Assembly: GCA_041652555.1 (NCBI GenBank)
Contig: JBAZHE010000003.1
Span: 4,096 to 68,095, forward strand
Length of the DNA stretch: 64,000 nt
Origin: Patescibacteria group bacterium
GTDB taxonomy: Bacteria; Patescibacteriota; Patescibacteriia; Patescibacteriales; WJLG01
Direction of reading: 5' to 3'
Positions 6,429 to 62,205 of the stretch are shown here, piece by piece. How positions within the stretch are numbered: position 1 is the first letter of the stretch; each line of letters opens with the position of its first letter. The notes beneath the pieces are model-generated. The model saw only the letters and a list, made by a program, of their open reading frames with translations. It ran no database searches and was not told the origin of the DNA. Made by a program: the position numbers and the translations under genes.

Positions 6429-6580
6429 AAGATGAAACCAATACAAAACACCCTCACGATGTGGTGAGAAGCGTCAAACTGGACAGTAAACGCAATGATA
6501 GAATAGATGTTGATACGTTTATATTTACTGTCATGATATATAATAGTGTATGTTGTAATAGTATTTAAATATTTCTACAA

Positions 6581-9700: not shown

Positions 9701-10164
9701 TTCGTTGCATCCGGGAACCCGCGTTCATCAGAACATTCAATATCCACAATACAAACGCGCGCGGGATAGTTTAAATCTTTGAATAATATGTCGTCAATCG
9801 TGCATGGTGATTGTGTATAAGAGAAACCAGATTTTATTTTTGTATCAATCAGAAACCTCAATGTGTATAAAATATCCGCTTCATAGTGTTTAGAAAACTT
9901 CTCGCGCGATTCAAAAATGTCACCGGGTTTTTGAGTAATGACTTTCACCAAAGGTTCATGGAGAATGGAAAAATATTCATTTGAATCAACTTCGGAGGGT
10001 GGTGTTGCTTTGGGGGATTCTGATGCGGGAACAAAAAAATAAGGTTTGAAACCAACCACATCCACACGATGAGAAACACCGGAGGAGTCACGACCGAAGA
10101 TGTTAATGACAGGAGAGTTGTTATGGAAGGAGTATTCGGCTTGAGTTAAGCAGAGATCAGGCAT
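6793..10164 (-). CDS. polB: family B DNA polymerase, intein-containing (795-aa extein + 328-aa intein)
   Basis: Exo I VDIECS, Exo II GWN/CNEFDIPY (split by intein), motif A DAKSLYPMSMM, motif B KVCMNSYYGV, motif C VFGDTDSV. Confidence 0.95.
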   Translation of the reverse strand: MPDLCLTQAEYSFHNNSPVINIFGRDSSGVSHRVDVVGFKPYFFVPASESPKATPPSEVDSNEYFSILHEPLVKVITQKPGDIFESREKFSKHYEADILYTLRFLIDTKIKSGFSYTQSPCTIDDILFKDLNYPARVCIVDIECSDERGFPDATKDPIFCITCHDSFTNRYITFVVATSPLIETPKENGCFDPAHHDVITYTDEKSLLVDFCEYIKSTDPDIITGWNCVPEDTMVDTKNGLIPIKALIPGIVLNTGGKVVSVYNTGVKNTTRIRTSIGWDFIVGEDHRMLVSQIPQDRHYVWEHCENYEPTYEISKNITSDSILHIPIRQYENNIGLGLDPFNCYRAGLIYSDGARPDKWRFRFYNKNINLINRCCGENHRWFTKGVWCSNILQRDLKGAEHLILVGDKKQLNFGLLSRLSVEEFGAFLAGWYDGDGYSDVFCIGDHTINIRHFQLFAGFGAITSSTCNINLRILCITQKLLECMKKFLQKKIKNKIHIIKRKRVTRKDHFRFNFNRNLTNMYLRVKNVSNDVPKNCYDIETTEHNFSIGCVVHNCNEFDIPYILGRMDVLGIPRDAWSRLPSGNTGRIEIKGRQLFDLLSGYKRMHLGEQPSYRLDAIALEELGKQKIHHNGKVFDLWKEDPTNLVYYNFTDVELCVGINAKDETVEFHRYVAHYAGCPLEKTTNSMPIIDMLVLREAKENGFILPSKANSINTQESFEGATVIAPMRGVQENVAVLDAKSLYPMSMMTINASPETKDPKGELRAPNGVRFKKEPDGLVRKIQAKFLRERDEMKKERNKYPFDSREYKLLNMKQDVVKVCMNSYYGVSANPMFRLNDRDVGSAITSVGRALLEHNKKLVEHEEYKIVFGDTDSVGIKIPKSIGKEGTMFIAKELETLLNNSYPQFAKETLNADVQYFSVKFEKLYQRFFSGGKKKRYAGLLIWKEGVDAHKIDIVGFETKRSDSPKVTRDAMKTLIEMVLEGKPYEEIRTTISDVIRKYRAGKYSLDDVGIPGGIGKPLEEYDIQDAQVRAAVYSNTYLGTNFGKGSKPKRLYIKNVTSKYPRTDVVCFEYADQIDRNIFIVDVDTMLEKTLKTPLSRIMEPLNFNWCEFDPATPTLGKWGF
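8500..9483 (-). mobile_element. intein with LAGLIDADG homing endonuclease in PolB (residues 228-555)
   Basis: Starts CVPEDTMVDTKNG, ends CVVHN followed by +1 Cys; two LAGLIDADG motifs (YRAGLIYSDGA, FLAGWYDGDGY); removal restores T4/RB69-like GWNxxxFDIPY. Confidence 0.9.
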
Positions 10165-16642: not shown

Positions 16643-17336
16643 ATGGAAACTTACGAAGATAAACTCATTAAAGAACGATATTGCGTCGATGGAGAAAATA
16701 GTTATCCCGATGTTTGTGAACGTGTAGCGCGATTCATTTCAAGCAACGACGAACAATATCATCAGTTCAAGAAAATTCTTGTAGATAAAGATTTTTTGCC
16801 CAACTCACCAACCCTGATGAATGCCGGAACTTCTAACCCCGCCTTGTCAGCGTGTTTCTTTTTGCCGGTAGAAGATACAATTGAAAGTATTTTTGATGCT
16901 AACAAAAATGCAGCAAAAATCTTCGCTCGTGGGGGCGGGGTCGGATTCAATTTCTCAAAACTCCGACCCGCTGGAAGCAAAGTTGGAAAACGCAACGGTG
17001 TTTCCTCCGGTGTGGTTTCATTTATGGAAGTTTTTAACACAATGACAGAGGTTGTCAAGCAAGGAGGCCGTCGCCGGGGAGCTATGATGGGATGCCTTGA
17101 TATTGCGCATCCAGAAATCAAAAACTTTGTGACATGTAAACAGACAGAAGGAAAACTCTCTAACTTTAATATCTCTGTCAAACTCACAGATGAATTCATG
17201 AAGAATCCCACACCCGAAATCATGAACTTGATTGTGAACGGAATTTACAATAACGGAGAGCCGGGAATTCTGTTCAAAGATACAATCGAAAAGTATAACC
17301 CGGCTCCCGAATATGGAGAACTCAATACAAATCCAT
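16643..17336 (+). CDS. nrdJ: class II (B12-dependent) ribonucleotide reductase, exon 1
   Basis: FLPNSPTLMNAG, LSACFFLPVEDT, GGGVGFNFSKLRPAGS, QGGRRRGAMM; exon ends ...NTNP + T (first base of the Cys codon). Confidence 0.9.
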
Positions 17337-17607
17337 TAAACTCCGTGTGGATTTAAAATCGCGTAAATTGCTGGAACACCCTTAAGCATCTCTAACTACA
17401 ACGCAATCAGAAATGATAAACGTGAACGTTTTAAAAATAGAAATGATTGGGCAATCAGCAGCCAAGCATCTTATCAATAAGATGAAGGTTCAGAGACTAT
17501 AGACGCGACATCGATGATATAGTCCGATCTCATATGAGAATATGAGAGTGTGACAGAAATGATCACACCTGCAACGAAGCATCGTTGCTGTAACAAAAAA
17601 CCTCTTG
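17337..17607 (+). ncRNA. group I self-splicing intron, 271 nt, no ORF
   Basis: P1: exon AATCCAT (17330-36) pairs with intron GTGGATT (17347-53), U-G wobble at the splice site; core CAGAGACTATA (17491-501) and GATATAGTCC (17516-25) with P7 GACTA/TAGTC; three 3' hairpins; terminal G 17607; splicing gives an in-frame TNPCGE. Confidence 0.85.
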
Positions 17608-19001
17608 GCGGGGAGGCTCTATTAGAATCATGGGGGAGCTGCAACTTGGGTAGCATCAACCTTTCCCACCACATAAAAGACAATGCAATTGACTACGACA
17701 AACTCAAAGCCACAATAGACACAGCGGTTATATTCCTCAATAATGTAATCGACAAAAACAAATACCCACTCCAAGAAATTGACTTTGCATCCAAGCGAAC
17801 GCGCAAGATCGGTCTCGGTGTTATGGGATTCCACGACGCGTTGATTAAAATGGGGATTCCTTATAATAGTCAGAAGGCACTTGATATTGCCGAAGAAATT
17901 ATGAAATTTATTAATGAGCGCGCACATGAAGTGTCAGAGTCATTGGGTAAGAATCCGAATATCAAACAGAACAGGTTAAATGCTTCATTGACTTCGATTG
18001 CACCAACGGGAACAATTAGTATTATTGCGGGTGCTTCATCAGGTATCGAACCCGCATTTAATTGGGTATATACGCGGCATGACACGTTGGGCGAACATTA
18101 TATTGTGCATCCGTTGTTTGAAGAAGCGTTGAAAAATCTAATGACTGATCTTAATGGCAAAGTAGGATTCTTCGTAACCGTGGATGGCGTAAAATATGAT
18201 ACGTTGGATGGAACGAGACAAGCCATTATTAGACACTGCCATGAAAAGGGGACGATTCGCGATATAGAATTTTTACCAGATTCTTTCAAACTCCTCTACC
18301 AAAACGCAATGGACATCCCTTCATCAATGCACGTAAAAATGCAGGCCACATTCCAAAAGAATGTGGATATGTCCATTTCAAAAACAATCAACCTTCCAAA
18401 CTCTGCTACTAAAGAAGAAATCAAACAGATCATTATTGACGCGTGGAAGAGTGGTTGTAAAGGTCTTACAATCTATCGCAATGGTAGCCGTGAGAATGAA
18501 GTGTTGGCACTTAAGAAACCCGTGGTTGTTGAAAGTATCGTAGATTGGATCGAAACTGAAAATGCTTTCTACGAATCCAAAACCCCCGCTGTAATTTACA
18601 AAGTCCATAGTGGATGCGGGAAATTCTATGTTATCATTGGCCACGACAAAGAGGAACCAACAATGATCTTTGTGGAAGGTGATGGTGTTGGTGGGTGTCA
18701 GGCAAATATGGCAGCAATGGGGCGTTCTATTTCGGCAGGATTGGAATGGGGGACACCAGCAGAGAACTATGTAAAACAATTCTCTAAAGTAAAGTGCATG
18801 ACGGCGATGCAGAACAAATTATCGTGTGGTAAATCGTGCGCGGATATTACAGGAAAATGTTTGGACGATGCGATAAAAATGTTAATGCCCAAAAGTATAA
18901 AGGTTGAAGCAACAGAAGAAAAATGTTGTGACGCGCCGCATTATGTGATGGAAGGCGGATGCAGGATTTGTACGAATTGTGGCAAAAGTAGGTGTTCGTG
19001 A
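17608..19001 (+). CDS. nrdJ: class II ribonucleotide reductase, exon 2
   Basis: Begins GC GGG GAG.. giving C-GEALLESWGSCNLGSINL; RKIGLGVMGFHDAL, TSIAPTGTIS, ISKTINLP; Cys-rich C-terminal tail; exons total 2088 nt = 695 aa. Confidence 0.9.
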
Positions 19002-21538: not shown

Positions 21539-21777
21539 TTAGAATAAAAATAATAGAAAATGCTGGAAATCATTTTGCTCAACGATTTTTAAAAAATTGT
21601 TTTGGTGGTGATGAAGCAGTAGCATACCTCGCATCCCAAAAAGCACATTGGCTTGAAAATCACGAAAGGGAAATTGGATTTCTCACTAAAGAATTCGGGG
21701 ATTTAAAAATATCGATTGGAGATGATTATGAGTTGTTTGATTCCGAATACACCGATTTATTTGAGGTTGTTGAATGA
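21535..21777 (+). CDS. hypothetical protein (80 aa)
   Basis: ORF track; ATGA overlaps at both ends. Confidence 0.5.
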   Translation: MIRIKIIENAGNHFAQRFLKNCFGGDEAVAYLASQKAHWLENHEREIGFLTKEFGDLKISIGDDYELFDSEYTDLFEVVE

Positions 21778-23330
21778 TTATCCAAGGCGACGCTTTAACA
21801 GTTTTGAAAAGGATGGATAGTGAGTCAGTGCATTGTGCGGTAACGTCAAGTCCATATTATGGATTGCGTTCGTACAATACCGAACCACAAATATGGGATG
21901 GAGATCCAAACTGCCAACATGAATGGGGGGAAGTTCATCCACCGGGATATAGATCATCTGATACAAAACCGGGTCCAATGCAACATGAAGGGAATACGCA
22001 CCGTGAGAATTTGCGAAGTGATATTTGTTCAAAGTGTGGAGCGTGGAAAGGTGAACTGGGACAAGAGCCTACACCTGAATTGTTTGTTAAACACCTAACA
22101 ACTATCTTTCATGAATTAAAAAGGATTTTAAGAAGCGACGGTGTTTTCTGGATGAATATTGGGGATAGTTATTGTGCTTCTAAATGCGGATCGTTCAACG
22201 GTGGATCAGATATTCTTAAAGGAAGAAATCTTGAAGGTCACTCTAAATCCGGGAATGTAGATAAGTCAAAACTTATGGGAATGAAACCCAAAGACCTTAT
22301 TGGTATCCCGTGGGCTTTAGCATTTTCTATGCGCTCCGATGGTGCCTCATCACCACAGACAATGTATACAGTAGAAAAAATCAAAACTTCGTTGCTTCGA
22401 GATTATGATACTTGGAATGACGTTCCAAAACATACTAAAAGAACAATTGAAGATTTGGATGAAGAGTGGTTAAAAGCAAGTAAGGGGGGTTGGTATCTCC
22501 GTTCTGATATTCCTTGGGTAAAAAGAAATTCACTTCCATCATCTGTAACAGATCGCCCCGGCTCTTCCATTGAACACATATTCTTATTCTCAAAATCACA
22601 GAAATATTACTATGACTACATAGCAACAATGCAACTTTCATCAGAATCTTACAACAAAGATAAAAGACCGCGCGGTGTTATTCGTCAATGCGTAAACACA
22701 AACTCCAAGTATCCAGATGGGGGGCAATTTAAAAAGCAAGATAACACAGGGAATGAAACTTACACAGGATTTAACGCTCGCTATGAACCTAATGGTTATG
22801 GCCTTCGTTACATGCGGGATTCCGATTTCTTCTTCAAGACATGGCAAGGACTTCTTCACAATGAAGATGGTGAACCAATGGCTCTTGTGGTAAATCCGAA
22901 ACCGTATAAAGGTTCACATTTTGCCGCATATCCGATAAGGCTTGTAGAACCCCTAATTCTCGCGGGAACATCAGAAAAAGGCGTTTGCCCACATTGTGGA
23001 GCGCCGTGGGTTAGAGTTGCGAAAAAAGAATCATATATAACTCGCCCCACCATTGGTTCTGATGATCAGAAGCAAAAACTCAATCCCGGTAATGCGCAGG
23101 GATTAGAACGCACTGGTGGTCATGTTGCTCAAATTACTGAAACCATAGATTGGCAACCATCTTGTAATTGCACAAATAACATACCAGTTCCCGCCACAAT
23201 TCTCGATCCCTTCTCCGGCTCATCAGCAACCGGTGTCGCTTGTAAACTCCATAATCGTGATTATATTGGTATAGAACTCAATCCTGAATATTGTGAACTT
23301 GGAAGAAAACGTATTCGTGAAGGCAAATAA
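21774..23330 (+). CDS. N4-cytosine / N6-adenine DNA methyltransferase (beta class), large insertion
   Basis: Motif IV VTSSPYYGLRSY near N-terminus, motif I ILDPFSGSSATGVA near C-terminus; no adjacent nuclease. Confidence 0.85.
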   Translation: MIIQGDALTVLKRMDSESVHCAVTSSPYYGLRSYNTEPQIWDGDPNCQHEWGEVHPPGYRSSDTKPGPMQHEGNTHRENLRSDICSKCGAWKGELGQEPTPELFVKHLTTIFHELKRILRSDGVFWMNIGDSYCASKCGSFNGGSDILKGRNLEGHSKSGNVDKSKLMGMKPKDLIGIPWALAFSMRSDGASSPQTMYTVEKIKTSLLRDYDTWNDVPKHTKRTIEDLDEEWLKASKGGWYLRSDIPWVKRNSLPSSVTDRPGSSIEHIFLFSKSQKYYYDYIATMQLSSESYNKDKRPRGVIRQCVNTNSKYPDGGQFKKQDNTGNETYTGFNARYEPNGYGLRYMRDSDFFFKTWQGLLHNEDGEPMALVVNPKPYKGSHFAAYPIRLVEPLILAGTSEKGVCPHCGAPWVRVAKKESYITRPTIGSDDQKQKLNPGNAQGLERTGGHVAQITETIDWQPSCNCTNNIPVPATILDPFSGSSATGVACKLHNRDYIGIELNPEYCELGRKRIREGK

Positions 23331-23375: not shown

Positions 23376-24164
23376 ATGCCTCCTCTCGTTTCTGTTATCA
23401 TTCCAACTCACAACCGCAACCTATCTTTAAAACGAGCAATCCAAAGTGTCCTAGATCAGACTTTTACAGATTATGAAATTATTGTTGTAGATGACACATG
23501 GGCAACCAACGAAATTTCCGATAATTATCCAAATGTCCATTTTCTTCATATACCTACAACATCATATCCAGCCATATCCAGAAACATGGGCATTAAAGTT
23601 TCAAATGGAAAATACATTGCCTTTTTAGATGATGATGATGTTTGGTATCCAGAAAAATTAGCATCGCAGATATCAAGATTATTAATAGACCCAAAATTAG
23701 GATTGGTTTGCAGTAACGGGAACATAGGAAAAGATTTATATATTAAAAGAAATATTACAAATGAACCCGACATGCTTCCACAGGAAATAATAGGGGATTT
23801 CGTTGTAACATCGTCATGTGTAATTCGCAGAAGTTTATTGGAAAAAACAGGTCTATACAACCTGCTCCCACTTTGTGAAGACTATGATTTCTCAATAAGA
23901 TTTGTAGCAACAACACAAATTTATTACGACCCGACACCTTTGTTTGAATATACTATTTCAGAAAATAGTATACAAAAACGAAGTAACTATTCCTTTGTTG
24001 CTTATCACCAAAACGTTATAAAAGTAATGGAAAATTTACGAGAATTTTTAAAAAGGAACAATCTGGAAAAACCAGAAACATCGTTTTTAATTCATTATAG
24101 AATTCTCGATGAAAAAATAATGGTAATGTGGAATATAGTTAAAGATTTTATTAGAGGATATTAA
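23376..24164 (+). CDS. family 2 glycosyltransferase
   Basis: VSVIIPTHNR...IIVVDD...AFLDDDDVW. Confidence 0.85.
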   Translation: MPPLVSVIIPTHNRNLSLKRAIQSVLDQTFTDYEIIVVDDTWATNEISDNYPNVHFLHIPTTSYPAISRNMGIKVSNGKYIAFLDDDDVWYPEKLASQISRLLIDPKLGLVCSNGNIGKDLYIKRNITNEPDMLPQEIIGDFVVTSSCVIRRSLLEKTGLYNLLPLCEDYDFSIRFVATTQIYYDPTPLFEYTISENSIQKRSNYSFVAYHQNVIKVMENLREFLKRNNLEKPETSFLIHYRILDEKIMVMWNIVKDFIRGY

Positions 24165-25157
24165 ATGACAAAAATCTTTTTCGCCGGAGATATGCGCAGT
24201 CCTTTTATACAAGGAGATGCAGAACTTTTAAAGGAAGATCACGATGTTTTTATTTTTAACACCCCGATCAAAAAAATGGATTTTCCGCTTTATCTATTTA
24301 AATGTTTTCAACAAGTTTTAAATATTAGAAAATCAAATCTCGTCTGGGTTTGGTTTGCAGATTGCCCGGCACTACCATTAGTTATTATTGCAAAAATATT
24401 TAATATACCCACAGCTGTGAATGTCGGTGGATTTGAAGTTTCTGGAATATCTGAAATTAATTATGGAAATCAACTTAAACCAATCCGTGGATATGTTTCA
24501 AGATGGATTATAAGAAATGCAACAGAAATTATTGTTCCTTCCCCCGTATACAATGTTAAAACATTAAAAGTTGGTATAGGAATAAAATTGATGGATAATA
24601 CATTTGCATTGCCCGAAGACGATTATTATTTTGAAAATTATTACTTAACCCACACAATGGCTCATATAATCACAATTCCGAATTGGGTTGATACGGAAAC
24701 TTGTGATATACCACTTCCACAAAAAGAAGATCTTGCTGTAACCGCCGTGTGTTCGAAACATGCGTATGCTTATAAAGGAATTTCAATATTTCAAGAAGCA
24801 TCAAAAAATATTCTTTATAACACAAAAATATTAGAACATCTCCCACGAAAAGAATACGAGGACTATTTGAAACGCGCCAAAGTCTATTGCCAACTTTCAC
24901 GCGATGAAACATTTGGTATCTCACTTGTAGAGGCAATGGCATATGGTTGTGTGCCTGTTGTTAGCGATAAAGGTGCTTTGCCGTGGATTGTAGAAGACAC
25001 GGGTATTATCGTGCCTTATGGAGATGTTACAGCAACTATTAATGCAATTAATAAAGCAATGACTATGGACGGTTCAAAAGCGCGTGAGCGCGCACGTTAT
25101 TTCAGCCGTGAAAGAAAACAAGAATCGGTGAAACAACTCATCAAGGAATTAATATGA
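24165..25157 (+). CDS. GT-B (GT1/GT4-like) glycosyltransferase
   Basis: C-terminal ETFGISLVEAMAYGCVPVVSD (EX7E region). Confidence 0.75.
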   Translation: MTKIFFAGDMRSPFIQGDAELLKEDHDVFIFNTPIKKMDFPLYLFKCFQQVLNIRKSNLVWVWFADCPALPLVIIAKIFNIPTAVNVGGFEVSGISEINYGNQLKPIRGYVSRWIIRNATEIIVPSPVYNVKTLKVGIGIKLMDNTFALPEDDYYFENYYLTHTMAHIITIPNWVDTETCDIPLPQKEDLAVTAVCSKHAYAYKGISIFQEASKNILYNTKILEHLPRKEYEDYLKRAKVYCQLSRDETFGISLVEAMAYGCVPVVSDKGALPWIVEDTGIIVPYGDVTATINAINKAMTMDGSKARERARYFSRERKQESVKQLIKELI

Positions 25158-26326
25158 CACGTATTCTTATACTCGGAGACTACCCACTACCCAATGAAAC
25201 AATAACCGGCGGAATAATGCGGTCAGTTTATTTAACTGCCAATGCATTATCAAAATTGTGCCCAGAATATGACTTTCACGTATTGACAATCACGGATGGA
25301 ATTGATAAATCTTTTGTGTCAATCAACAAAAATCTTGCAATCCATTATATCCATTTTCCTTTAAGAAACAAACCAATCTTGGTTCCAAAATTCCTTTCCA
25401 AGCAATTGATATTGCATGAAATAAATAAAATAAAACCAGATTTAATCCACGCCAATGGTTCAAGCTGGGAATATGGATACCCAGCAATTGCATATAAAAA
25501 ATGTCCTGTTCTTATAACTGTTCACGGAGTGTCACACAATGAATCAAAATATTGGTCTGGTCTAAAAGGCGCGTGGCATCGTATAAGTTGTTGTAAAATG
25601 GAATCACACATCTTTGAAAAAATGGAAAACGTTGTTGCCGTTTCTTATTATGTAGAAAGAGAAATGAGAAAATGCATATCGAAAACACAATATGGAAACT
25701 ATGCGATACATGTAGATGTCATTTCCAACCCGGTTGATCCATGTTTTATGGATGTTACAACAAAATACACAATACCAAATCTATTATTATATGTTGGGGG
25801 GATTGAAAAACGAAAAGGATTAGACGTTCTTATCCGATCACTTTATATAGTTAAAAAACAAATGCCTTATATAAAATTGAATGTCGTTGGTTCGATACGA
25901 AGTCCTATATATTGCGCAGATATAATGAAACTCATTTCCGATTTGGATTTAATTGACAATGTGAATTTTGTTGGAAAAGTAAGCGATACATTATTAATGA
26001 AAGAATATTCTAATGCATCAATATATATTTCACCTTCATATGAAGAATCAGAGGGTATAACCATTCTTGAAGCGATGGCTACAGGAACACCAGTAATAGC
26101 AACCCGGTCGGGCGGTTCGGAAAGTATAATAAAAGATGGTGTTGATGGATTGTTGGTAAAAAACGGAAACCACGAAGAACTAGCATTTAAGATTTTAATT
26201 TGTGGTGATGCATTAAAAGAGCAACTTGGAAAAGGAGGGAGGGAAACAGCATTGAAATATTTACCGGAGAATATTGCGAAACAGTATATGGAAGTTTACA
26301 GGAGGTTGTTGAAATGCCAAAACTAA
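25154..26326 (+). CDS. family 4 glycosyltransferase
   Basis: SYEESEGITILEAMATGTPVIATRSGG; ATGA overlap. Confidence 0.85.
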   Translation: MTRILILGDYPLPNETITGGIMRSVYLTANALSKLCPEYDFHVLTITDGIDKSFVSINKNLAIHYIHFPLRNKPILVPKFLSKQLILHEINKIKPDLIHANGSSWEYGYPAIAYKKCPVLITVHGVSHNESKYWSGLKGAWHRISCCKMESHIFEKMENVVAVSYYVEREMRKCISKTQYGNYAIHVDVISNPVDPCFMDVTTKYTIPNLLLYVGGIEKRKGLDVLIRSLYIVKKQMPYIKLNVVGSIRSPIYCADIMKLISDLDLIDNVNFVGKVSDTLLMKEYSNASIYISPSYEESEGITILEAMATGTPVIATRSGGSESIIKDGVDGLLVKNGNHEELAFKILICGDALKEQLGKGGRETALKYLPENIAKQYMEVYRRLLKCQN

Positions 26327-26958
26327 CCGAACGGGAGCGCGAAGGATTTGAAAAAATACTAACGCAGGATTTGAAAGCAATCAATCAACGCTTTATCAGT
26401 CAGATAAAAGATTTCTGGGGAATTGCTCGTAGTAATGTGCTTAAACGAAAAGGATGGGATACTCTCATACTCGAAAAAGAACAACTGGAACGGAAACAAA
26501 AAGAAATTAAACAAAGAATGCACGAGATAGAAGATATTTTAAATAGTGAAAAATTGAGAGTAGAACAAGTGGTTGAACTCGGTGGAAAATCAAATGAATA
26601 TGGACGATGCGAAGGTGCGAACTTTTATGGAATTCCGATTACATCACAATTTGAATATGAAATTGTAGAATACATCAAAGCAAATATTGACCTCGAAGTG
26701 CCGGCAAAAATGTTGCGTGATGTATGTGAATCATCAATCCGCGCTCTCGTAATGGCTGGAACGTTTGAAGAAGCACGTGGGGCATATGAAAAGTTTTATT
26801 CTCTGGATTTCAGAAAGTATGGTGTTGATATTCCCCCACGATTGGATGATATTTGTGCCAACAAAAATTCAATGTTATATGCTCAACAATCATTGCAACA
26901 AATTGAAAAAGAAAAACCGGATATTAAGTTGATTGAATGTAAGGAGGAGAAAGAATGA
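26314..26958 (+). CDS. hypothetical coiled-coil protein (214 aa)
   Basis: ORF track; AGGAGG RBS. Confidence 0.6.
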   Translation: MPKLTEREREGFEKILTQDLKAINQRFISQIKDFWGIARSNVLKRKGWDTLILEKEQLERKQKEIKQRMHEIEDILNSEKLRVEQVVELGGKSNEYGRCEGANFYGIPITSQFEYEIVEYIKANIDLEVPAKMLRDVCESSIRALVMAGTFEEARGAYEKFYSLDFRKYGVDIPPRLDDICANKNSMLYAQQSLQQIEKEKPDIKLIECKEEKE

Positions 26959-27143
26959 AAGATGGTTATAAATTAACAATATTTTTAAGTGTTATAGTAA
27001 TAATATTGGCAATATTTATACATGGCACAGTTATTCATTTAACACAAGTGGGTGAATTTCAAAAATGTGTAAATGCAACACTTTCTGATCCACTCTATTC
27101 CACATTTGCATGTGATAGACCGGGATGGTGGTTTGGAATATGA
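26955..27143 (+). CDS. small membrane protein (62 aa)
   Basis: ORF track; one TM helix; AAGGAGG RBS. Confidence 0.5.
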   Translation: MKDGYKLTIFLSVIVIILAIFIHGTVIHLTQVGEFQKCVNATLSDPLYSTFACDRPGWWFGI

Positions 27144-29617
27144 AAATCCTTTTTATCTTACCTAGATTTAATAAAGGTTTCGGAACTGTCTACAATGAAA
27201 ACGAAACCGGTATTGACTATGATTACTTAATGCCCGTGGGAATGCCCTACATCGCTTCTTATCTCAAACACAATGGATGTGATGTCTCGGCATTAAACCT
27301 TAATCACACACCCGGATTGGTTAAAAACATTGTACAAAAAACTATTACTGACACTCACTATGATTTCGTATTCACCGGCACAATTTCCATAATGTATCCC
27401 GCTGTGCGCGATATAATAAAATATGTACACGAAGCATCTCCCAATACAATAACCGTCTGTGGTGGAGGTATCATTTCGTCTAACCCCGAACTAATGATGA
27501 AACTTATTAATCCACATTACGGGATTATTTTTGAGGGTGAAGAAACAGCATTAGAGTTGATACAAACTATTGAGAAGGGGCAATCTGTGGAAAATGTTAA
27601 AGGTATTATTTATTCAACAACATGGCCTATTCCAACGTTTACTAAAACACAACCACGCCCCCAAATCAAAAACCTAGATGCACTCCCGTTTCCCGATCTT
27701 GAACTATTCGGTTATTCCGAATACTTGAAACACCAAGAACTTGGCGGTTGGAATCAATATCCACGAGATTATCCACCGCGCCCGTATATGTTGGTTTCAG
27801 CGCGCGGTTGTTCGGCAAATTGTTTATCAGGAGACACTTTAATTGCAACCACAAATGGCAACATTAAAATAAAAGATCTCGTTGGGCAGACCCCAAAAGT
27901 TCTTACACGAGATCCAATTACAAAAGATGTATTATATGCACAGTCCTCAATAGTTGCTAAAACCGGAGAAAATAAAAATCTCGTTAGAGTTTCATTTAAA
28001 GAGGGGGGATATATTGACTGTACACCAGATCACAAATTTGTAAAATTTTTAAACTCAAACCAATATGTCCCGTTGAGAGAGTATGAAACGGAAGCACAAT
28101 TTTTGAGACCCGGTGATAGTGTTCGTGCTGTTCATTATAAATTGAGCACCACTGGTTACACGATTATAATATGGGGAAGGAAAAAGCATCGATATCAGCA
28201 CACTTTAATAATGGAATCTATGATTGGAAGGAAACTCTCACAATACGAAAGGGTTCATCACAATGATCATAATCAAATAAATAATGTTGAAAAAAATTTA
28301 ACACTTACCGACAATCATAAACATATCCCAACTTACCATCCAGAACTATCACAACGTATGAAAGATAATAATCCCGCAAAAAATCTACCACACGAATTTT
28401 TTGTGCAACGCGGAAAAGAACAACGTGGTAAAGTTCGCTCTATAGAATCCAGAATGAATTATAAAGCATCCAAAACGGGGAATAAAAATCCGATGTGGAA
28501 AGGTGGTTGTGGAAGAACAACAAAATCCCGTATACCCGGGCAACCAGATGTAAATCACGTAGTTAAAAGCGTTGAACCACTAGATGGGTTACATAATACG
28601 TATTGTTTAGAAGTGCCGGGATATAATTGGTTCTATGCCAACGACGTTCTTGTTCATAATTGCACATTTTGCTACCACACAACCGGCCCAAAATACCGCT
28701 ACCGTTCCGCAGAAAATATAATGTCAGAAATCAAATACGTTGTTGAAAAATACCACATTAACTTCTTCACATTTCTTGACGAATTGTTTTCATACGATAA
28801 AGCGCGCGCACTTGAATTCTGCCGACAATTTAAAGAATATCAGAAAACCATTCCGTGGCGAATTGAAATGTATTGCAATCTGCGCGTTGATTGCGCGGAC
28901 GCAGAACTTCTTGATGCCATGAAATCCTGTGGGAATGTAGTTATCGGATTAGGTCTCGAAAGTTACAACCAAAAAGTTCTCGATTCAATGCGAAAACACA
29001 TAACACCCGCGCAGATTGAAACCACGCTTGGAATGATCGCAGAAAGAAATCTTGTTCCGCAAGGGGGGTTCATCTTTGGAGATAATGCAGAAACACTTTC
29101 CACCGCACGCACTACTTTACAATTCATTCGAGAACACCCACATCTTTCACGAGGTGGTTTATTTATGGGCTTTATTATTCCGTTTCCCGGGACCGCTATT
29201 TATAAACATGCTTTACAAAATGGAATCATAAAAGATGAAATAGAATTTATTAATAAATTGACAAGCACGGATTATAATTATGATAACGTATGTAATCTCA
29301 CAAATTTATCAGATGAAGATTTTGACACGTTGAAAAATGAAGTGTTCACTTTAAAATACACAGCAATTCCCGTATCTGTTCCAACAAAAATAACCAATGA
29401 TGAAATCTTTGTAAAATGCCCCCATTGTGGGAAGATGCAAACTTATAAAACAACTAAACGACCACATGCGCAATTCAGCGTGGGGGTAATTTGTAATAAC
29501 CCCGAATGTAATGGAAGATTTGAAATGGGCACACGATATATTCAATTGGGGAGACTCGCTGTAAAGTTATTGGGATTTAAAAGAATGCGACGGATTAAAA
29601 ATTGGATGGGGATTTGA
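27140..29617 (+). CDS. B12-binding-domain radical SAM enzyme, intein-containing
   Basis: N-terminal Rossmann-like B12 domain (KILFILP.., VCGGG), radical SAM motif C-SAN-[intein]-C-TF-C, C-terminal Cys-rich zinc ribbon; ATGA start at 27140. Confidence 0.8.
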   Translation: MKILFILPRFNKGFGTVYNENETGIDYDYLMPVGMPYIASYLKHNGCDVSALNLNHTPGLVKNIVQKTITDTHYDFVFTGTISIMYPAVRDIIKYVHEASPNTITVCGGGIISSNPELMMKLINPHYGIIFEGEETALELIQTIEKGQSVENVKGIIYSTTWPIPTFTKTQPRPQIKNLDALPFPDLELFGYSEYLKHQELGGWNQYPRDYPPRPYMLVSARGCSANCLSGDTLIATTNGNIKIKDLVGQTPKVLTRDPITKDVLYAQSSIVAKTGENKNLVRVSFKEGGYIDCTPDHKFVKFLNSNQYVPLREYETEAQFLRPGDSVRAVHYKLSTTGYTIIIWGRKKHRYQHTLIMESMIGRKLSQYERVHHNDHNQINNVEKNLTLTDNHKHIPTYHPELSQRMKDNNPAKNLPHEFFVQRGKEQRGKVRSIESRMNYKASKTGNKNPMWKGGCGRTTKSRIPGQPDVNHVVKSVEPLDGLHNTYCLEVPGYNWFYANDVLVHNCTFCYHTTGPKYRYRSAENIMSEIKYVVEKYHINFFTFLDELFSYDKARALEFCRQFKEYQKTIPWRIEMYCNLRVDCADAELLDAMKSCGNVVIGLGLESYNQKVLDSMRKHITPAQIETTLGMIAERNLVPQGGFIFGDNAETLSTARTTLQFIREHPHLSRGGLFMGFIIPFPGTAIYKHALQNGIIKDEIEFINKLTSTDYNYDNVCNLTNLSDEDFDTLKNEVFTLKYTAIPVSVPTKITNDEIFVKCPHCGKMQTYKTTKRPHAQFSVGVICNNPECNGRFEMGTRYIQLGRLAVKLLGFKRMRRIKNWMGI
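27821..28660 (+). mobile_element. intein with HNH endonuclease domain (280 aa) inside the radical SAM CxxxCxxC motif
   Basis: Starts CLSGDTLIATTNG, block B TPDHKF, ends NDVLVHN + Cys; internal HRYQH..VHHNDHNQINN..NL..H HNH signature. Confidence 0.85.
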
Positions 29618-29949
29618 TGACCATAAAAATTCCATTGTCAATTTTAAAATATATTGCAGATCGACAAACCGAGTTTCAGACCGCGTGGAACATATATCAA
29701 TATGTTTTTCCAATCGTGACGTTTGAAACATTTGCTATGTTGGCTTGTGAAAAATTTGGGATATATGGCAATGCTGCCATTCTTATTTATATAATTATTC
29801 CAATAATAGGATTTATCGGAGTTGTAATATCAGGGAGAGTTTTAATACGATCCGATTATCAATATTTATTTATGAAAAATTCAGCGGATTTGAATAAGGA
29901 TTGGAAGGAAGTCGTGACTATATTAAGAGAGTTGAAGGAGAGGAAATAA
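29617..29949 (+). CDS. membrane protein (110 aa)
   Basis: ORF track trimmed to ATG 29617 overlapping upstream stop; two TM helices. Confidence 0.5.
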   Translation: MTIKIPLSILKYIADRQTEFQTAWNIYQYVFPIVTFETFAMLACEKFGIYGNAAILIYIIIPIIGFIGVVISGRVLIRSDYQYLFMKNSADLNKDWKEVVTILRELKERK

Positions 29950-29950
29950 A

Positions 29951-30325
29951 ATGGAAGAATTTATAGAATTTTGGCCCATGGTTAAATGTTTAATATTTCC
30001 ACATATTATGGGAATATTATTTGGAATATTCGTTGGAATCTCGATATATATATTATTGTTTTCAAAAAAATATATATCCTTTTTATATAATTGGAATAAT
30101 GTAATAAAAATCGCTCCATTTTTAATAATATCACTTATGGGAGGAATATTAGGAATATTAAAAATTATAGAATTTGCAAGTGAAACGCAACCTATTTATC
30201 ATATGTGGGCATATATAATGGGATGTCAAATGATAATCATTTCTTATGGAATGATAACCGGATTTGGTTGTGGTGGAGCGATTGGATATTTTATTAATAA
30301 ATTCATGGATAAATTGGAGGATTAA
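29951..30325 (+). CDS. polytopic membrane protein (124 aa)
   Basis: ORF track; GAAGGAGAGG RBS; four hydrophobic helices. Confidence 0.55.
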   Translation: MEEFIEFWPMVKCLIFPHIMGILFGIFVGISIYILLFSKKYISFLYNWNNVIKIAPFLIISLMGGILGILKIIEFASETQPIYHMWAYIMGCQMIIISYGMITGFGCGGAIGYFINKFMDKLED

Positions 30326-30326
30326 A

Positions 30327-31196
30327 ATGAACCGCGTATTTTGGAACCCAATAGTAAAACCAACACCACTATATTTTGAATTGTTGCGAGAATTTAATTG
30401 CAAAAAATATAATGACAATCTTCCACTCGTAAGTATTGTCATTCCTGCTTATAATTCTGGAAAATACATCGGAGAATGCCTACAATCCGTTATCAACCAA
30501 ACTTACACAAACTGGGAATGTTTTATTGTTCTCGCACCATGCACAGATAATACATTGGATGAAATATGGAAATGCATTAATGTAGATGATCCAAATCCAA
30601 AAATCCGTATTATACGGGAAGATAAAAAATCTAATTGTGCGACCGCGCGCAATAAGGGGTTTAATGAATGTTCTGGTAAATATGTTACTTTCCTAGATGC
30701 TGATGATTGGTGGGAACCACAAAACTTGGAAAGAATGGTTATGGCAATGGAAAACTATATCAATTCAGATTTGGATTGGTGTGTGCATTGCCAAAAAATG
30801 CATAAAGATAATAAGGAACAAATTATTATGGAGATGCCCGGTACACACAACGAGATTGGGGGAATTGGAGGAATATTATTTAAAAAAGAAACATTAGATA
30901 AAATAAAATCTGAATATGGGTATGTGTTTGATGAATCTTTAAAACACACTGATGATGGAGATTTGTCTTTGCGTTTGCGAAAATATAAAGGTAGATTATT
31001 CCCAGAAGTTTTATCTCACTATCGTTGGAACGAAAGCGGGTTGACTGCAACAACGGGCAATATTAATCAATCGTGGGGCATTGTAAAAATTCTTATTAAA
31101 AGGGGTGCGTGGGATTTGCTGCCGTATCATTTGAAGAATTTGGGAGTTTGTATCGTTGAAGAAGTAACGGGGTTTGATTTGGTGAGGAAGAGATGA
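30327..31196 (+). CDS. family 2 glycosyltransferase
   Basis: VSIVIPAYNSGKYIGECLQSVINQTY..FLDADDWW; start at ATG 30327 behind GGAGG. Confidence 0.85.
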   Translation: MNRVFWNPIVKPTPLYFELLREFNCKKYNDNLPLVSIVIPAYNSGKYIGECLQSVINQTYTNWECFIVLAPCTDNTLDEIWKCINVDDPNPKIRIIREDKKSNCATARNKGFNECSGKYVTFLDADDWWEPQNLERMVMAMENYINSDLDWCVHCQKMHKDNKEQIIMEMPGTHNEIGGIGGILFKKETLDKIKSEYGYVFDESLKHTDDGDLSLRLRKYKGRLFPEVLSHYRWNESGLTATTGNINQSWGIVKILIKRGAWDLLPYHLKNLGVCIVEEVTGFDLVRKR

Positions 31197-31345
31197 AAAC
31201 GAACTACGATATATATTTCCAAGTTTACAACACATCATCTAAAAAATGGGTGAAATATGATAGAACACAGGGGAGAGTCGTGGATATCAAAGACGATGGC
31301 GAACCGTATGAAAATATACAGATATATAATGAGGGGATAAAATGA
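31193..31345 (+). CDS. small hypothetical protein (50 aa)
   Basis: Not in track; ATGA overlaps at both ends. Confidence 0.4.
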   Translation: MKTNYDIYFQVYNTSSKKWVKYDRTQGRVVDIKDDGEPYENIQIYNEGIK

Positions 31346-32142
31346 TCCTACCACCCTCCTACTTCGAGATCACAACCAAAATCGGTTGCTCAATCAACTG
31401 CCTAAAATATTGTCCACAGGAAACGATTATTAAAAATTACAAAGGTAATCCTTTAATGACACTTGACCAGTTCAAAAACTTTATGAAAACGGTTCCACAA
31501 AATCTACCCATTTTCTTTTCTGGTCTATGCGAACCATTCCTTAATCCACAGACAACAGATATGATTATGTGGGCACATCACAAAGGACACCCCATTTCTA
31601 TATTTAGCACACTAACCGGATTGACACCAACTAATGCTTGTAGGTTAATTGATATTCCCATCGACAAATTTGTCCTTCACCTCCCCGACGCTTATGGTAA
31701 TGCCAAAATCCCACAAACACAAGATTACTTTGAAGCACGCTCCATTATTGAAATGAATGTTAAGCATCTCGAATATATGAACATGGGGTGGGGGTTTATT
31801 TCCAATAAGTGCGAGGATATGGCGCGCGGTCGGGCCGAATTAAAAAAAGGGCGTAGACTTTGCAACTTCCTAGAATCACCTGCTTATCAACTCCTGCCCA
31901 ATGGCAACGTGTTCTTTTGTTGTATGGTGCGCGGGTTGACGGAGAAGGTTGGGTCGTTGTATGAGAATACATATCTAGAGTTGGCAGCGCGACATGGAAA
32001 GATCTCTGATAGATTGCAGAAAGACCAAAATTCTATTTGTCATTATTGTAATGTGTCGGAGAAATATTGGTTGAGGAGAGCGATACAAAAGAAGAATGAG
32101 TTGTTGAAGGGTAAGACGATTATGCAGGTGTTGGGGGTTTGA
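31342..32142 (+). CDS. radical SAM protein
   Basis: N-terminal GCSINCLKYC (CxxxCxxC); C-terminal Cys pairs (FFCC, CHYC). Confidence 0.7.
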   Translation: MILPPSYFEITTKIGCSINCLKYCPQETIIKNYKGNPLMTLDQFKNFMKTVPQNLPIFFSGLCEPFLNPQTTDMIMWAHHKGHPISIFSTLTGLTPTNACRLIDIPIDKFVLHLPDAYGNAKIPQTQDYFEARSIIEMNVKHLEYMNMGWGFISNKCEDMARGRAELKKGRRLCNFLESPAYQLLPNGNVFFCCMVRGLTEKVGSLYENTYLELAARHGKISDRLQKDQNSICHYCNVSEKYWLRRAIQKKNELLKGKTIMQVLGV

Positions 32143-39286: not shown

Positions 39287-40168
39287 TTACCACCCCCACA
39301 TATCATGATATGCTTTATGAGAATTCTTCAACATGGTGATTCCATTATTTATATCCCATAATTCTTCGCATGATTCTGCTTCTTCCAAAGTCGTTATATT
39401 ATATTTTTCTATTATTGTATGGAAAGGTATTATATGGTGTGCTTGAATAGGGTTTTTGCGTGTTCCTTTGCATCCGCTGAACCAATCTCGGTAATTATCT
39501 CTGGCAAATATAGAAAGAATCCATTTTCTCATTTTTGTGCAATGTCTAATTTGATTATTTAATGATGTGACACCATCCTTCCATTGATATGCATTTTCAC
39601 CACGTCTTATATATCTTAAATTTAAACATTTATCCTCTGACCATTTTTTCCCGATTCGAAATTTGCGACTGCATTCATCAGAACAAAATTTCCCCCTTTC
39701 GTGATCAACTTTGTATTGTGTGGTTTCAAATTCTTTCCCACATTGCTGACAAACACGATTTATACGTTTTCTTCTGGCAATCGATTTACATCCAACCGAG
39801 CAATATTTCCCACCACCCCTAACAATATAAGATGTCCACACTTCAAATTCTTTTCCGAATGTCAAGCATTTACATTTTATTTTACTTCTATTTCCGATAT
39901 ATGCACACTCACGAGAACAATATTGCGGGTGTTGATATGGATATTTTACTTCGAATACAATTCCACATTGTTTACAAATACGCAAAACATCACGGATTTT
40001 TGATTCCGTTGGATGTAATATTTTATTTCTTTCCCTCCCATATTCACTTTGGCAATCTTTACACCACATTTGCAATCCATCTTTTCTACTTTTTTCTCTC
40101 CTAAACTTCGTTAACGGCAATCCCCTCTTACACCGACTACAAACCTTTGTTTTAATTTCTTCTTCCAT
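39287..40168 (-). CDS. zinc-ribbon-rich endonuclease paralog with degenerate HNH
   Basis: Several CxxC..CxxC ribbons; C-terminus QWKDGVTSLNNQIR..IQAHHIIPF..DINNGITMLKNSHKAYH aligns with the 2480-4771 paralogs. Confidence 0.65.
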   Translation of the reverse strand: MEEEIKTKVCSRCKRGLPLTKFRREKSRKDGLQMWCKDCQSEYGRERNKILHPTESKIRDVLRICKQCGIVFEVKYPYQHPQYCSRECAYIGNRSKIKCKCLTFGKEFEVWTSYIVRGGGKYCSVGCKSIARRKRINRVCQQCGKEFETTQYKVDHERGKFCSDECSRKFRIGKKWSEDKCLNLRYIRRGENAYQWKDGVTSLNNQIRHCTKMRKWILSIFARDNYRDWFSGCKGTRKNPIQAHHIIPFHTIIEKYNITTLEEAESCEELWDINNGITMLKNSHKAYHDMWGW

Positions 40169-61098: not shown

Positions 61099-62205
61099 TT
61101 AAAACTTGGGTGAATTTTCCACCCAAGTTATTCTTCTATTCATCAAAAAATTCCAAATATATCCGATTACTATTCCTATAGCATTTCCTATTAAATAGTT
61201 TATTCCTACGAATGTTAGTGCCACCAAAACAGTAACATTTATTATCATTGATCCAATACAGATTGAATTATAACTAAACATTCTGTGAAGGAATGATTTT
61301 TGGCATTTTGCTCCTTTAAATGTAAAATTATCATTCATTAAAAAATTTGTTATAATACTTATTTCTATCGCTAGGAAACTTGCAAAAACCAAAGGCGTAT
61401 TAAAAACTTCTTTGAACACGGACAAACAAATCATATTTGTTGCCACTCCGATAAGACCAACGATCCCAAATTTTACCATCTTTCTTAATTCTTCTCTTCC
61501 ACGTCCGGGGAACAATGCATTATCAATAAATTGTTTTGCGAATTGAATAATTGTGGATTTCTTTAATTTGCTTTCACCCACTTTTCTGTTTGTGAAAACA
61601 TACGGTAATTCTTTCACTATAGTCCAATGGCATTTTGAAAGAATCTCCAATAAGATTTTATATCCACACCGTGGGTTTAATGAAGGTGTGTGCATTATTA
61701 AATCCTTTTTTGCTCCGAAGAATCCGGAAATTGGATCGGTAATTTTCGGGAAAAGGAGGCGACCGAGGAATGTTGCCCCGAAAGAAATAACACGACGTTT
61801 TAAAGGCCAGTCTTTGATACCACCATTTGGCATATATCTTGACCCAATTGCGATATCTACATTATTGTTTTTTATTTCATTGAACATTGCAGGAATAATT
61901 TCTATTGAGTGCGATAAATCTGCGTCCGTCACTACCACCACGTTTCCGCGCGCTTTATTTATTCCGGCAATAACAGATTGGGAAAGTCCCGGATCTTTTG
62001 TGCGCGTTATTAAAACCACGGGATACTTCCTAATGATAAGATCGGTAACAATAAGTTGTGTCTTATCCGTGGAAGAATCATCGACAACGATTATTTCAAA
62101 AGTTATAGTGGTGAGACGAAGAGTATGAGAAATTTTTTGTATTGTGTTTTGAATGTTTTCTTCTTCGTTGTAAGTGGGGATGATTATAGAAAGAGATGGA
62201 CGCAT
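61099..62205 (-). CDS. polyprenyl-phosphate glycosyltransferase (GT2, Dpm1/GtrB-like) fused to GtrA-like domain
   Basis: LSIIIPTYNEEENI, IIVVDDSSTDKT, VVVTDADLSH; C-terminal four-helix GtrA-type region KFGIVGLIGVATN...NFLMNDNFTF...NFLMNRRITW. Confidence 0.85.
   Translation of the reverse strand: MRPSLSIIIPTYNEEENIQNTIQKISHTLRLTTITFEIIVVDDSSTDKTQLIVTDLIIRKYPVVLITRTKDPGLSQSVIAGINKARGNVVVVTDADLSHSIEIIPAMFNEIKNNNVDIAIGSRYMPNGGIKDWPLKRRVISFGATFLGRLLFPKITDPISGFFGAKKDLIMHTPSLNPRCGYKILLEILSKCHWTIVKELPYVFTNRKVGESKLKKSTIIQFAKQFIDNALFPGRGREELRKMVKFGIVGLIGVATNMICLSVFKEVFNTPLVFASFLAIEISIITNFLMNDNFTFKGAKCQKSFLHRMFSYNSICIGSMIINVTVLVALTFVGINYLIGNAIGIVIGYIWNFLMNRRITWVENSPKF

Follow-up and report, generated by a model that had tools for sequence, protein, structure and literature searches.

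The subject of this work is a run of glycosyltransferase (GT) and radical S-adenosylmethionine (SAM) genes on contig JBAZHE010000003.1, of which a stretch of 64,000 nucleotides was analysed; this whole stretch is called the window, and positions below count from its first letter. The listing and translation of open reading frames (ORFs) place eleven translationally coupled ORFs at 23376-32142 of the plus strand, in the order GT2, GT-B, GT4, a protein of 214 amino acids (aa), a 62-aa transmembrane protein, a B12-binding radical SAM enzyme, membrane proteins of 110 and 124 aa, a second GT2, a 50-aa ORF and a 266-aa radical SAM-like protein. An earlier reading, made from the sequence only, had described them as one tightly coupled unit of GTs and two radical SAM enzymes, and this description holds for all eleven ORFs, with Pfam agreeing on the GT2, GT-B, GT4 and B12 radical SAM genes. 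The features, under the short names used hereafter, are:

GT2a, 23376..24164, plus strand: 262-aa family-2 (GT-A) glycosyltransferase (Pfam Glycos_transf_2, 100 bits, E 1.4e-28).
GT1, 24165..25157, plus strand: 330-aa GT-B glycosyltransferase, of which Pfam Glycos_transf_1 (64 bits) recognises the C-terminal half only.
GT4, 25154..26326, plus strand: 390-aa GT-B glycosyltransferase of family 4 (Pfam Glycos_transf_1, 116 bits, and Glyco_transf_4, 51 bits).
cc214, 26314..26958, plus strand: 214-aa soluble accessory protein, putatively coiled-coil from its sequence, outside the conserved core.
tm62, 26955..27143, plus strand: 62-aa single-pass membrane protein with a hydrophobic segment at aa 2-33 (hydropathy), a lineage-specific accessory.
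B12 radical SAM precursor, 27140..29617, plus strand: 825 aa, to be spliced into an enzyme of 545 aa (Pfam B12-binding, Intein_splicing and Radical_SAM).
Intein, 27821..28660, plus strand: 280-aa class-1 intein with an HNH endonuclease domain, aa 233-512 of the radical SAM ORF.
tm110, 29617..29949, plus strand: 110-aa membrane protein with about two hydrophobic segments and a charged amphipathic C-terminal tail (hydropathy).
tm124, 29951..30325, plus strand: 124-aa membrane protein with two to three hydrophobic segments (hydropathy), a lineage-specific accessory.
GT2b, 30327..31196 (ORF 30264-31196), plus strand: 289-aa family-2 glycosyltransferase (Pfam Glycos_transf_2, 110 bits).
s50, 31193..31345, plus strand: 50-aa ORF without cysteines, its position not conserved.
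SPASM266, 31342..32142, plus strand: 266-aa BtrN-like Twitch radical SAM protein with the motif C16-x3-C20-x3-C24.

The ORFs abut or overlap, by 1-13 bases, at their junctions (24164/24165, 25154-25157, 26314-26326, 26955-26958, 27140-27143, 29617, 31193-31196 and 31342-31345). Gene calls on identical contigs from other samples put the likely true starts at 27140 (radical SAM), 29617 (tm110) and 30327 (GT2b, called on L008/L009); the radical SAM ORF itself opens at 27125, which gives 830 aa instead of 825. The operon is the 3′ end of a long plus-strand block that starts near 15.3 kb, and is convergent with a minus-strand block running from 32150 on, with ribonucleotide reductase (RNR) and a DNA N6/N4 methyltransferase directly upstream and a helicase block downstream. 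Its GC content (0.34-0.37, against 0.31-0.41 elsewhere in the window) is the genome's own, so the operon is not a compositional island. A scan of 14.5-34 kb counted 80 sigma-70 promoters, against 72±10 in shuffled sequences, and 14 terminators, against 14±4. Megablast of the 8.8-kb region found no match, and hence no cultured relative, among 50,697 phage records, and in an exact-sequence look-up the 266-aa protein was matched, whilst the 830-aa ORF and P0131 were without a record owing to differences in start codon.

The linkage of these genes is conserved in related viral contigs, and the scattered copies without linkage that the sequence-only reading had envisaged as speaking against it are not what was found. 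The core order GT2a-GT1-GT4-B12 radical SAM-tm110-GT2b-SPASM266 is kept, at 52-85% aa identity by tblastn, in four other viral lineages, L001/L002 (the same sequence from two samples), L003/L004, L007 and the IMG/VR contig L093, which ends within GT4 and in which tm110 was not detected. On the contigs that carry P0005 and P0007, two homologs without the intein described below (44, 83 and 79 kb), the genes run RNR, (DNA methylase), GT2, GT1, GT4, (214 aa), B12 radical SAM, 110 aa, small ORF, GT2, small ORF and a product of about 267 aa, followed by a minus-strand block that ends in the same helicase; the P0013 contig (L007) and L093 agree with this order. A more distant viral contig, L091, whose radical SAM protein is 45% identical, carries a reduced triad, i.e., the radical SAM gene, then small membrane ORFs and then a GT2. 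The module is thus part of the backbone that is conserved among a group of large uncultured double-stranded DNA viruses from anoxic habitats, and for this reason, besides its genome-like GC content, the word ‘island’ used in the earlier reading had to be dropped.

All four GTs score above the Pfam gathering threshold, and hydropathy gives none of them a transmembrane segment. GT2a has a DxD-type ‘FLDDDDVW’ in its translation and no hydrophobic segment, and its orthologs (54-79% identical) occupy the same position in L001, L003 and L007, where those of GT1 are 57-68% identical; orthologs of GT4 and GT2b are 52-82% and 55-75% identical, respectively. The NCBIfam matches of GT4 are generic ones only, all far below their cut-offs.

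The 214-, 62-, 110-, 124- and 50-aa proteins match no family in Pfam, PHROGs or NCBIfam, and no PHROG family matched the B12 extein, the Twitch radical SAM protein or the small proteins of the operon. Only tm110 among these is a core member, always in the slot between the radical SAM gene and GT2b, with orthologs 62-78% identical in L001, L003 and L007; L091 has in this slot a 107-aa protein of similar layout and without detectable sequence similarity. A holin, which two transmembrane segments and a charged tail might have suggested, was considered for tm110 and set aside, given the coupled slot kept across lineages, the layout analog in L091 included. The ‘polytopic membrane proteins’ of the sequence-only reading are membrane proteins, although small ones. 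The other four (cc214, tm62, tm124 and s50) vary between lineages: tm62 is confined to contigs identical to the window (L008), as is tm124 (L008, L009), whilst for s50 L003 has a homolog upstream of GT2a, L007 has none and L001 has unrelated ORFs of 83 and 52 aa in its place. cc214 is present in L001/L002 (84%) and L093 and absent from L003 and L007. It is 96% identical in L093 (L093:695), more than the flanking GT4 (70%) and radical SAM gene (83%) there, which suggests recent gene exchange between lineages.

By its domains and its model, the spliced product of the B12 radical SAM gene (the extein) has a class-B architecture outside any known specific family. Pfam recognises B12-binding (PF02310) at aa 35-145 with 49 bits (cut-off 32.1) and Radical_SAM with 53 bits (cut-off 29.5), the cluster motif CxxxCxxC (GCSAN+CTFC) being contiguous only in the spliced product. 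The best folds for the AlphaFold model of the extein (predicted local distance difference test, pLDDT, 88.9) are TsrM, MgmA, AprD4, OxsB, CysS and TokK, with Foldseek E-values of 1e-22 to 1e-13 and 13-21% identity. No class B family of NCBIfam reaches its cut-off, neither HpnJ (127 vs 578 bits), PhpK (120 vs 600) and BchE (110 vs 481), nor MgmA/MJ_0865, the glutamine methylase of methyl-coenzyme M reductase (96 vs 360), the lipid-related B12 radical SAM family TIGR04072 (96 vs 360) and HpnR (47 vs 650), so that the best scores (HpnJ, PhpK, BchE and the glutamine methylase) amount to a fifth to a quarter of the cut-offs. PHROG matches of the whole ORF are limited to the HNH domain of the intein and one marginal transcriptional regulator. 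AprD4 has the same domain layout, is a close structural match and is annotated as a 1,2-diol dehydratase, and so the B12-binding domain alone is no proof of methyl transfer; the B12-dependent methylation assumed in the sequence-only reading accordingly remains an assumption, the closest solved relatives including the non-methylating AprD4 and OxsB.

The extein also carries an invariant C-terminal module of four cysteines, VKCPHCG…ICNNPECNG (C480, C483, C505 and C510 of the 545 aa; window 29000-29617, plus strand), conserved in 26 family members down to 36% identity and predicted to form a small beta-rich domain, either a zinc ribbon or an extra metal site.

The sequence-only reading had recognised both domains of this ORF, but the intein that splits its cluster motif, which is the most distinctive feature of the locus, had been overlooked. 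The ORF is 825-830 aa long because an intein lies inside it, between the B12 and radical SAM domains, and the insertion point falls between the x3 and the second cysteine of CxxxCxxC (…RGCSAN / CLSGDT…VLVHN / CTFCYH…, slashes marking the junctions). The precursor reads …RGCSAN/CLSGDTLI…TPDH…HHNDHN…YCLEVPGYNWFYANDVLVHN/CTFCYH…, i.e., the primary translation has its motif split by 280 aa, and excision of aa 233-512 restores CSANCTFC, a regular CxxxCxxC. Pfam Intein_splicing scores 45.1 bits (cut-off 35.8), and both intein ends exceed their NCBIfam cut-offs (TIGR01445, 42.8 vs 24.5; TIGR01443, 19.5 vs 15.6). All splicing blocks are present, namely Cys1 (CLSGDT), block B with TPDH (TxxH), the C-terminal His-Asn (VLVHN) and the +1 Cys, and the HNH domain is seen both in PHROG matches at aa 334-412 (best E 3.5e-9) and in the HHNDHN…N…H motif of the translation.

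Comparison between alleles gives the same boundaries. With the spliced 550-aa extein as query, nine intein-free homologs were found (81-87% identical, 542-558 aa), along with the identical intein-bearing P0001 (825 aa) and the intein-bearing P0013 at 75%, whose intein (contig L007) is allelic and at the same site. In all intein-free sequences the alignment shows a clean gap exactly at the junction of x3 and the second cysteine, these sequences reading CxxxC(S/T)FC; in L001/L003 the intein-free site is TGC…TCG/TGTTCCTTCTGC. The same intein-bearing ORF was assembled independently in three other samples (the P0001 contig and two further contigs), and is therefore not an assembly artefact.

With the intein alone as query, related inteins turned up in five protein fragments, each of them inserted at this same point of the motif (GCKWK/C…/CTFC, QCPFS/C…/CTFC, …/CKFC, GCIAN/C… and GCPFN/C…). 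The exteins of four of these five are 21-52% identical to the enzyme of the window, the fragments of the fifth extein being too short for comparison. Occurrence at one motif position in radical SAM proteins as different as this indicates that the intein lineage targets the radical SAM cluster motif as such.

As the intein parts the first cysteine from the other two, the precursor should be unable to ligate the [4Fe-4S] cluster, and would be inactive until splicing, which would have to precede cluster assembly and so gate activity. Moreover, the +1 nucleophile of the intein is itself the second cluster ligand, and Cys-4, Cys1, Cys+1 and Cys+4 are clustered, so that splicing could act as a redox- or iron-gated switch. 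Redox control of this kind is possible by analogy with the MoaA intein of Pyrococcus abyssi, where a disulfide between an N-extein cysteine and Cys1 stops splicing under oxidising conditions (PMC3922620, PMC10663303). MoaA was the sole precedent found in the literature for an intein in a radical SAM motif, and a large survey of inteins (PMC4760082) makes no mention of radical SAM, Fe-S or cobalamin.

SPASM266 was taken for a second radical SAM protein in the sequence-only reading, and this was borne out by profile and fold rather than by Pfam, where it stays below gathering (Radical_SAM 20.2 vs 29.5 bits; SPASM 19.7 vs 21.5). Its family is mostly metagenomic, and the family alignment has as invariant positions C16, C20, C24, G61 (in a G61-EP motif), C174, C193, C194, C233 and C236. 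The viral clade has Cx3Cx3C, as against the canonical Cx3Cx2C of distant cellular members; the three cluster cysteines are kept despite the non-canonical spacing, and function may therefore be retained. The top Foldseek match of the model (pLDDT 92.2) is BtrN (4m7t; E 9e-9, TM-scores 0.65/0.70), followed by BlsE, anSME, SpeY and DesII, and BtrN is recovered by sequence, too, with the family profile (E 1.8e-5), every cluster cysteine being aligned (including C174, C193/C194, C233 and C236). Of the five best distinct structural matches, four have sugars or cyclitols as substrates, and the peptide-acting SuiB and EpeE rank behind the sugar-acting enzymes.

Cellular homologs of both radical SAM proteins lie in glycan loci. 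The B12 radical SAM family occurs in Methanoregulaceae (46, 40 and 37% identity) and, at 33-39%, in many DPANN archaea and diverse anaerobic bacteria. The Methanoregulaceae (Methanoregula) locus L005 holds Wzm/Wzt ABC-2 exporter genes, a TylF-type O-methyltransferase, an epimerase, heptose-pathway genes, a radical SAM-SPASM gene and transketolase halves; another locus with a homolog (L092) holds Wzx, DegT, NTP-transferases, epimerases, GT2, GT4 and a sugar C-methyltransferase. The Lachnospiraceae homolog of SPASM266 sits in a wall-glycopolymer locus, together with TarI/TarJ-like and TagF-like genes, GT2, GT4, RgpF, GT-D and three more radical SAM genes.

Elsewhere in the window, at 61099..62205 of the minus strand, a 368-aa protein is encoded that joins a GT2 to a GtrA/DPMS transmembrane domain (Pfam Glycos_transf_2 116 bits and GtrA_DPMS_TM 78 bits; PHROG GtrB-like, E 4.7e-37). 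It is of the polyprenyl-phosphate sugar synthase type and could feed extracytoplasmic glycosylation; a functional link to the operon, 29 kb apart, would have to be assumed.

These results suggest that the operon is a virus's own cytoplasmic, membrane-associated module which builds an oligosaccharide or other glycan and tailors it by radical chemistry, an interpretation we regard as probable. It is favored by the coupling of the genes, their conserved order, the glycan loci in which the cellular homologs of both radical SAM enzymes are found, the fold classes and the solubility of the GTs. In such a module the four soluble GTs (two GT-A/GT2 and two of GT-B/GT4 type) would transfer sugars one after another from host nucleotide sugars, on the cytoplasmic side of the membrane, to give a short glycan. 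The B12-domain enzyme, once spliced and loaded, may carry out a C-methylation or another radical rearrangement at an unactivated carbon, and the BtrN-like SPASM266 probably abstracts a hydrogen from a sugar carbon, oxidising C-H/C-OH in the manner of a radical dehydrogenase or a related oxidant. tm110, coupled between the radical SAM gene and GT2b, could tether this chemistry at the membrane. The order of the reactions, the chemistry of each radical SAM enzyme, the use of cobalamin, the membrane anchoring and the acceptor are all our inferences. With regard to the acceptor, a host envelope glycoconjugate remodelled during infection is our tentative first choice, one in which we have somewhat less than even confidence, and it is ranked ahead of virion proteins because of tm110, the separate GT2-GtrA/DPMS fusion and the envelope-glycan loci of the cellular homologs. 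The sequence-only reading had spoken of glycan or lipid modification, and whilst a glycan role fits those loci, no lipid family was reached at cut-off and there is no sign that archaeal lipids are tailored.

Several results weigh against this interpretation. Within the operon there is neither an initiating phosphoglycosyl transferase nor a flippase, a GT-C or a gene for nucleotide-sugar synthesis, which leaves the pathway incomplete on its own, and no acceptor was identified. No specific functional NCBIfam family is reached at cut-off, and the nearest solved relatives of the B12 enzyme, at 13-21% identity, include the non-methylases AprD4 and OxsB; the viral-clade SPASM266, with its non-canonical motif, may or may not be competent for SAM cleavage. 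The operon lies among replication and nucleotide-metabolism genes (RNR, DNA methylase and helicase), a placement that would fit nucleic-acid modification too. Whole-module synteny, finally, which the sequence-only reading had proposed to look for in host genomes, was found at none of the 79 cellular loci with B12 radical SAM homologs when all operon proteins were searched by tblastn, with scattered GT matches of 25-38% only. By the same result the module cannot be regarded as a captured host operon, a reading we reject, and is rather a viral assembly.

The closest rival is glycosylation of the virion, in which the GTs and radical SAM enzymes would modify capsid or tail proteins that are still cytoplasmic and unassembled, thereby shielding or stabilising the particle or mediating adsorption. 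Virus-encoded virion glycosylation is established in mycobacteriophages and giant viruses. That all four GTs are soluble would suit it, as would the place of the module in the conserved backbone of a genome of lytic-type look, with no integrase among the window ORFs scanned. The operon is not adjacent to structural genes, however, and includes the conserved membrane protein tm110; the polyprenyl-phosphate-sugar synthase type of GT in the genome points to membrane-linked glycans, and the cellular homologs of both radical SAM enzymes are in envelope polysaccharide loci. We therefore hold it to be unlikely, although it deserves to be taken seriously.

Hypermodification of DNA or nucleotides, with the GTs glycosylating modified viral bases and the radical SAM enzymes elaborating the adduct, so as to shield the genome from host nucleases, is improbable. 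It would explain the site of the operon directly downstream of RNR and the DNA N6/N4 methyltransferase and upstream of the helicase block, and it could draw on weak similarities of GT2a to TAGT (16.6 bits, cut-off 27.5) and of GT4 to GT4-conflict (24.9, cut-off 26), but these scores are below cut-off and dwarfed by the generic GT2/GT4 ones. Among the ORFs scanned, a set that many small ORFs fall outside, there was neither a base hydroxymethylase nor a TET/JBP-type oxygenase; there are membrane proteins in the operon, and the cellular radical SAM homologs are in glycan loci and not in DNA-modification loci. To our knowledge, four GTs also exceed the number used by known DNA glycosylation systems.

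Still less credit can be given to two other possibilities. One has s50 as the precursor of a ribosomally made, post-translationally modified peptide (RiPP), modified by the SPASM/Twitch and B12 radical SAM enzymes and then glycosylated, for which it can be said that SPASM/Twitch and class-B enzymes often mature peptides, that s50 is translationally coupled to SPASM266 and that there is weak NCBIfam similarity to RiPP radical SAM methylases (TIGR03975, 79 vs 282 bits) and to a radical SAM-associated GT family (TIGR04157, 63 vs 400); yet these scores are all far below cut-off, s50 has no cysteine and no conserved position in L001, L003 and L007, and the sugar-acting matches of SPASM266 come ahead of SuiB and EpeE. 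The other, put forward in the sequence-only reading, is tailoring of archaeal membrane lipids, the B12 enzyme methylating or cross-linking the isoprenoid lipids of an archaeal host, and the best cellular homologs of this enzyme, in Methanoregulaceae and DPANN archaea, as well as the viral DNA polymerase (see below), would agree with it; it is nonetheless very improbable, given the low TIGR04072, HpnJ and HpnR scores mentioned above, the sugar/polysaccharide rather than lipid locus of the Methanoregula homolog, the several signals that lean towards a bacterial host (i.e., a group I intron, a phage-like helicase and the labels of the genomes) and the GC content of the virus (37%), far from that of Methanoregula, which is about 55%.

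The genome around the operon is that of a virus, with genes and features in the window such as PolB, RNR, helicase, primase, a Cas4-like nuclease, a Sak4-like annealing protein, nine tRNAs and many HNH genes. PolB is closest to haloarchaeal tailed viruses (31-33%) and the helicase to bacterial phages (40%); tblastn of the primase against phages gave no match, and Pfam, run on ten further ORFs for a lysin or host-domain marker, gave nothing useful. At 17327-17546 of the plus strand there is a group I intron (Rfam RF00028, 67.3 bits against a gathering score of 50, E 6.5e-15, full-length model), which splits the gene of the RNR large subunit into ORFs 16643-17356 and 17550-19001, related contigs having one uninterrupted RNR of 682-698 aa. 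Bacteria and their phages are where group I introns typically occur, and this one therefore inclines us towards a bacterial host. Three metagenome-assembled genomes that bear the label Patescibacteria group or Ca. Paceibacterota contain proteins identical or nearly identical to SPASM266 (MFA5247910.1, MFA5745575.1 and MFA6258175.1), the contigs measuring 87,830 and up to 138,951 bp, and these viral contigs were either binned with their host or mis-binned. Overall we lean towards a bacterial host, with the signals (PolB, helicase, taxonomy of the homologs, genome labels and intron) in conflict.

A second intein, of LAGLIDADG type (LAGWYDGDG), lies at 8500-9483 of the minus strand (aa 228-555 of the PolB ORF 6793-10164), inside the Exo II motif (…ITGWN/CVPEDTMV…CVVHN/CNEFDIPY…); Pfam does not report it at E<=0.001, and its presence accounts for a tblastn alignment of PolB that is broken in two and spans only 70% of the protein. 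There are also at least five free-standing ORFs similar to HNH or homing endonucleases (2441-3208, 3175-3906 and 3908-4771 in tandem on the plus strand; 39287-40168 and 45857-46960 on the minus strand), which, with the two inteins and the intron, make this genome unusually rich in selfish elements.

Other observations concern the remaining parts of the window. ARAGORN predicts nine tRNA genes, seven of them clustered at 5765-6662 of the minus strand (four Leu, two Ser and one Thr) and the others at 55653-55727 and 62978-63055 of the plus strand; no more than five of the nine pass the gathering score of Rfam for tRNA. The N6/N4 DNA methyltransferase upstream of the operon (21774-23330, plus strand) has 518 aa, compared to 400 aa in L001 (36% identity), with several insertion blocks that include a Cys-rich segment (…CQHEW…CSKCGAW…) and in which no intein signature was found. 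A PAPS-reductase-like gene (634-1839, plus strand; PHROG 2302, E 6e-86) overlaps a ParB-like gene (1824-2465, plus strand; PHROG 2159, E 1e-64), the two forming a conserved phage gene pair.

Virus-encoded glycosylation is already known, but an operon that pairs four GTs with two anaerobic radical SAM enzymes is absent from the PHROG families and the isolate phage genomes searched, and it implies a glycan chemistry (a C-methylated or otherwise radically modified sugar) without an assigned product. For radical SAM enzymology, it brings a compact BtrN-like enzyme with Cx3Cx3C and a B12-domain family at home in loci for surface glycans, in methanogens, DPANN archaea and anaerobic bacteria. For the biology of inteins, it brings a +1 nucleophile that is an Fe-S ligand, an intein that some alleles have and others, 81-87% identical, do not, and its recurrence at one motif position in distant radical SAM paralogs, features which allow redox-conditional splicing, as shown for the MoaA intein of P. 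abyssi, to be tested directly. If the host belongs to Patescibacteria or DPANN, the operon would also bear on how viruses reshape the surfaces with which these episymbionts attach.

It is tempting to go one step further and imagine an HNH intein lineage specialised on the DNA that encodes CxxxCxxC, hopping between radical SAM genes 21-52% identical, whose splicing is a redox- or iron-gated switch that withholds an oxygen-labile, B12-type sugar-tailoring enzyme until conditions are reducing, in an operon that would give an ultra-small Patescibacteria or DPANN host a new radical-modified (e.g., C-branched) sugar on its envelope. Taken as a whole, this is a speculation we find quite unlikely.

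Like phage Gtr-type O-antigen conversion and virion glycosylation systems, the module has several virus GTs as one unit and a GtrB/DPMS-type gene elsewhere in the genome, but the operon is without a GtrA/GtrC partner (no operon protein matches a GtrA or GT-C family in Pfam, PHROG or NCBIfam, so that it is no GtrABC serotype-conversion unit), its GTs are soluble, and two radical SAM tailoring enzymes are conserved integral members of it. The B12 enzyme shares with the class B radical SAM enzymes (TsrM, MgmA, TokK, CysS, OxsB and the B12-domain-like AprD4) an N-terminal Rossmann B12-binding domain followed by the radical SAM barrel, whereas its identity to them is 13-21%, no equivalog is reached, a four-Cys module is added and the gene is interrupted by an intein. 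SPASM266 has the partial radical SAM barrel and Twitch auxiliary-cluster domain of BtrN (the butirosin 2-deoxy-scyllo-inosamine dehydrogenase), SpeY, BlsE and DesII, with aligned cluster cysteines and a size comparable to that of BtrN (266 aa, against chains of 246-270 residues), but is 14% identical to BtrN and has Cx3Cx3C in place of Cx3Cx2C. As for the intein, it resembles the MoaA intein in interrupting an oxygen-labile radical SAM enzyme with extein cysteines near the catalytic Cys1, which in MoaA form a Cys(-3)-Cys1 disulfide redox trap, and differs from it in the B12-domain extein, the viral context and the HNH domain; the +1 nucleophile is here the second cluster ligand. With the inteins and homing endonucleases of phages (in RNR, terminase, DnaB and PolB) it shares the choice of the most conserved catalytic motif and the coexistence of intein-free and intein-bearing alleles in close relatives; unlike them, it sits in an auxiliary metabolic radical SAM gene and not in a replication or packaging gene, and a single intein lineage extends across radical SAM proteins only 21-52% identical.

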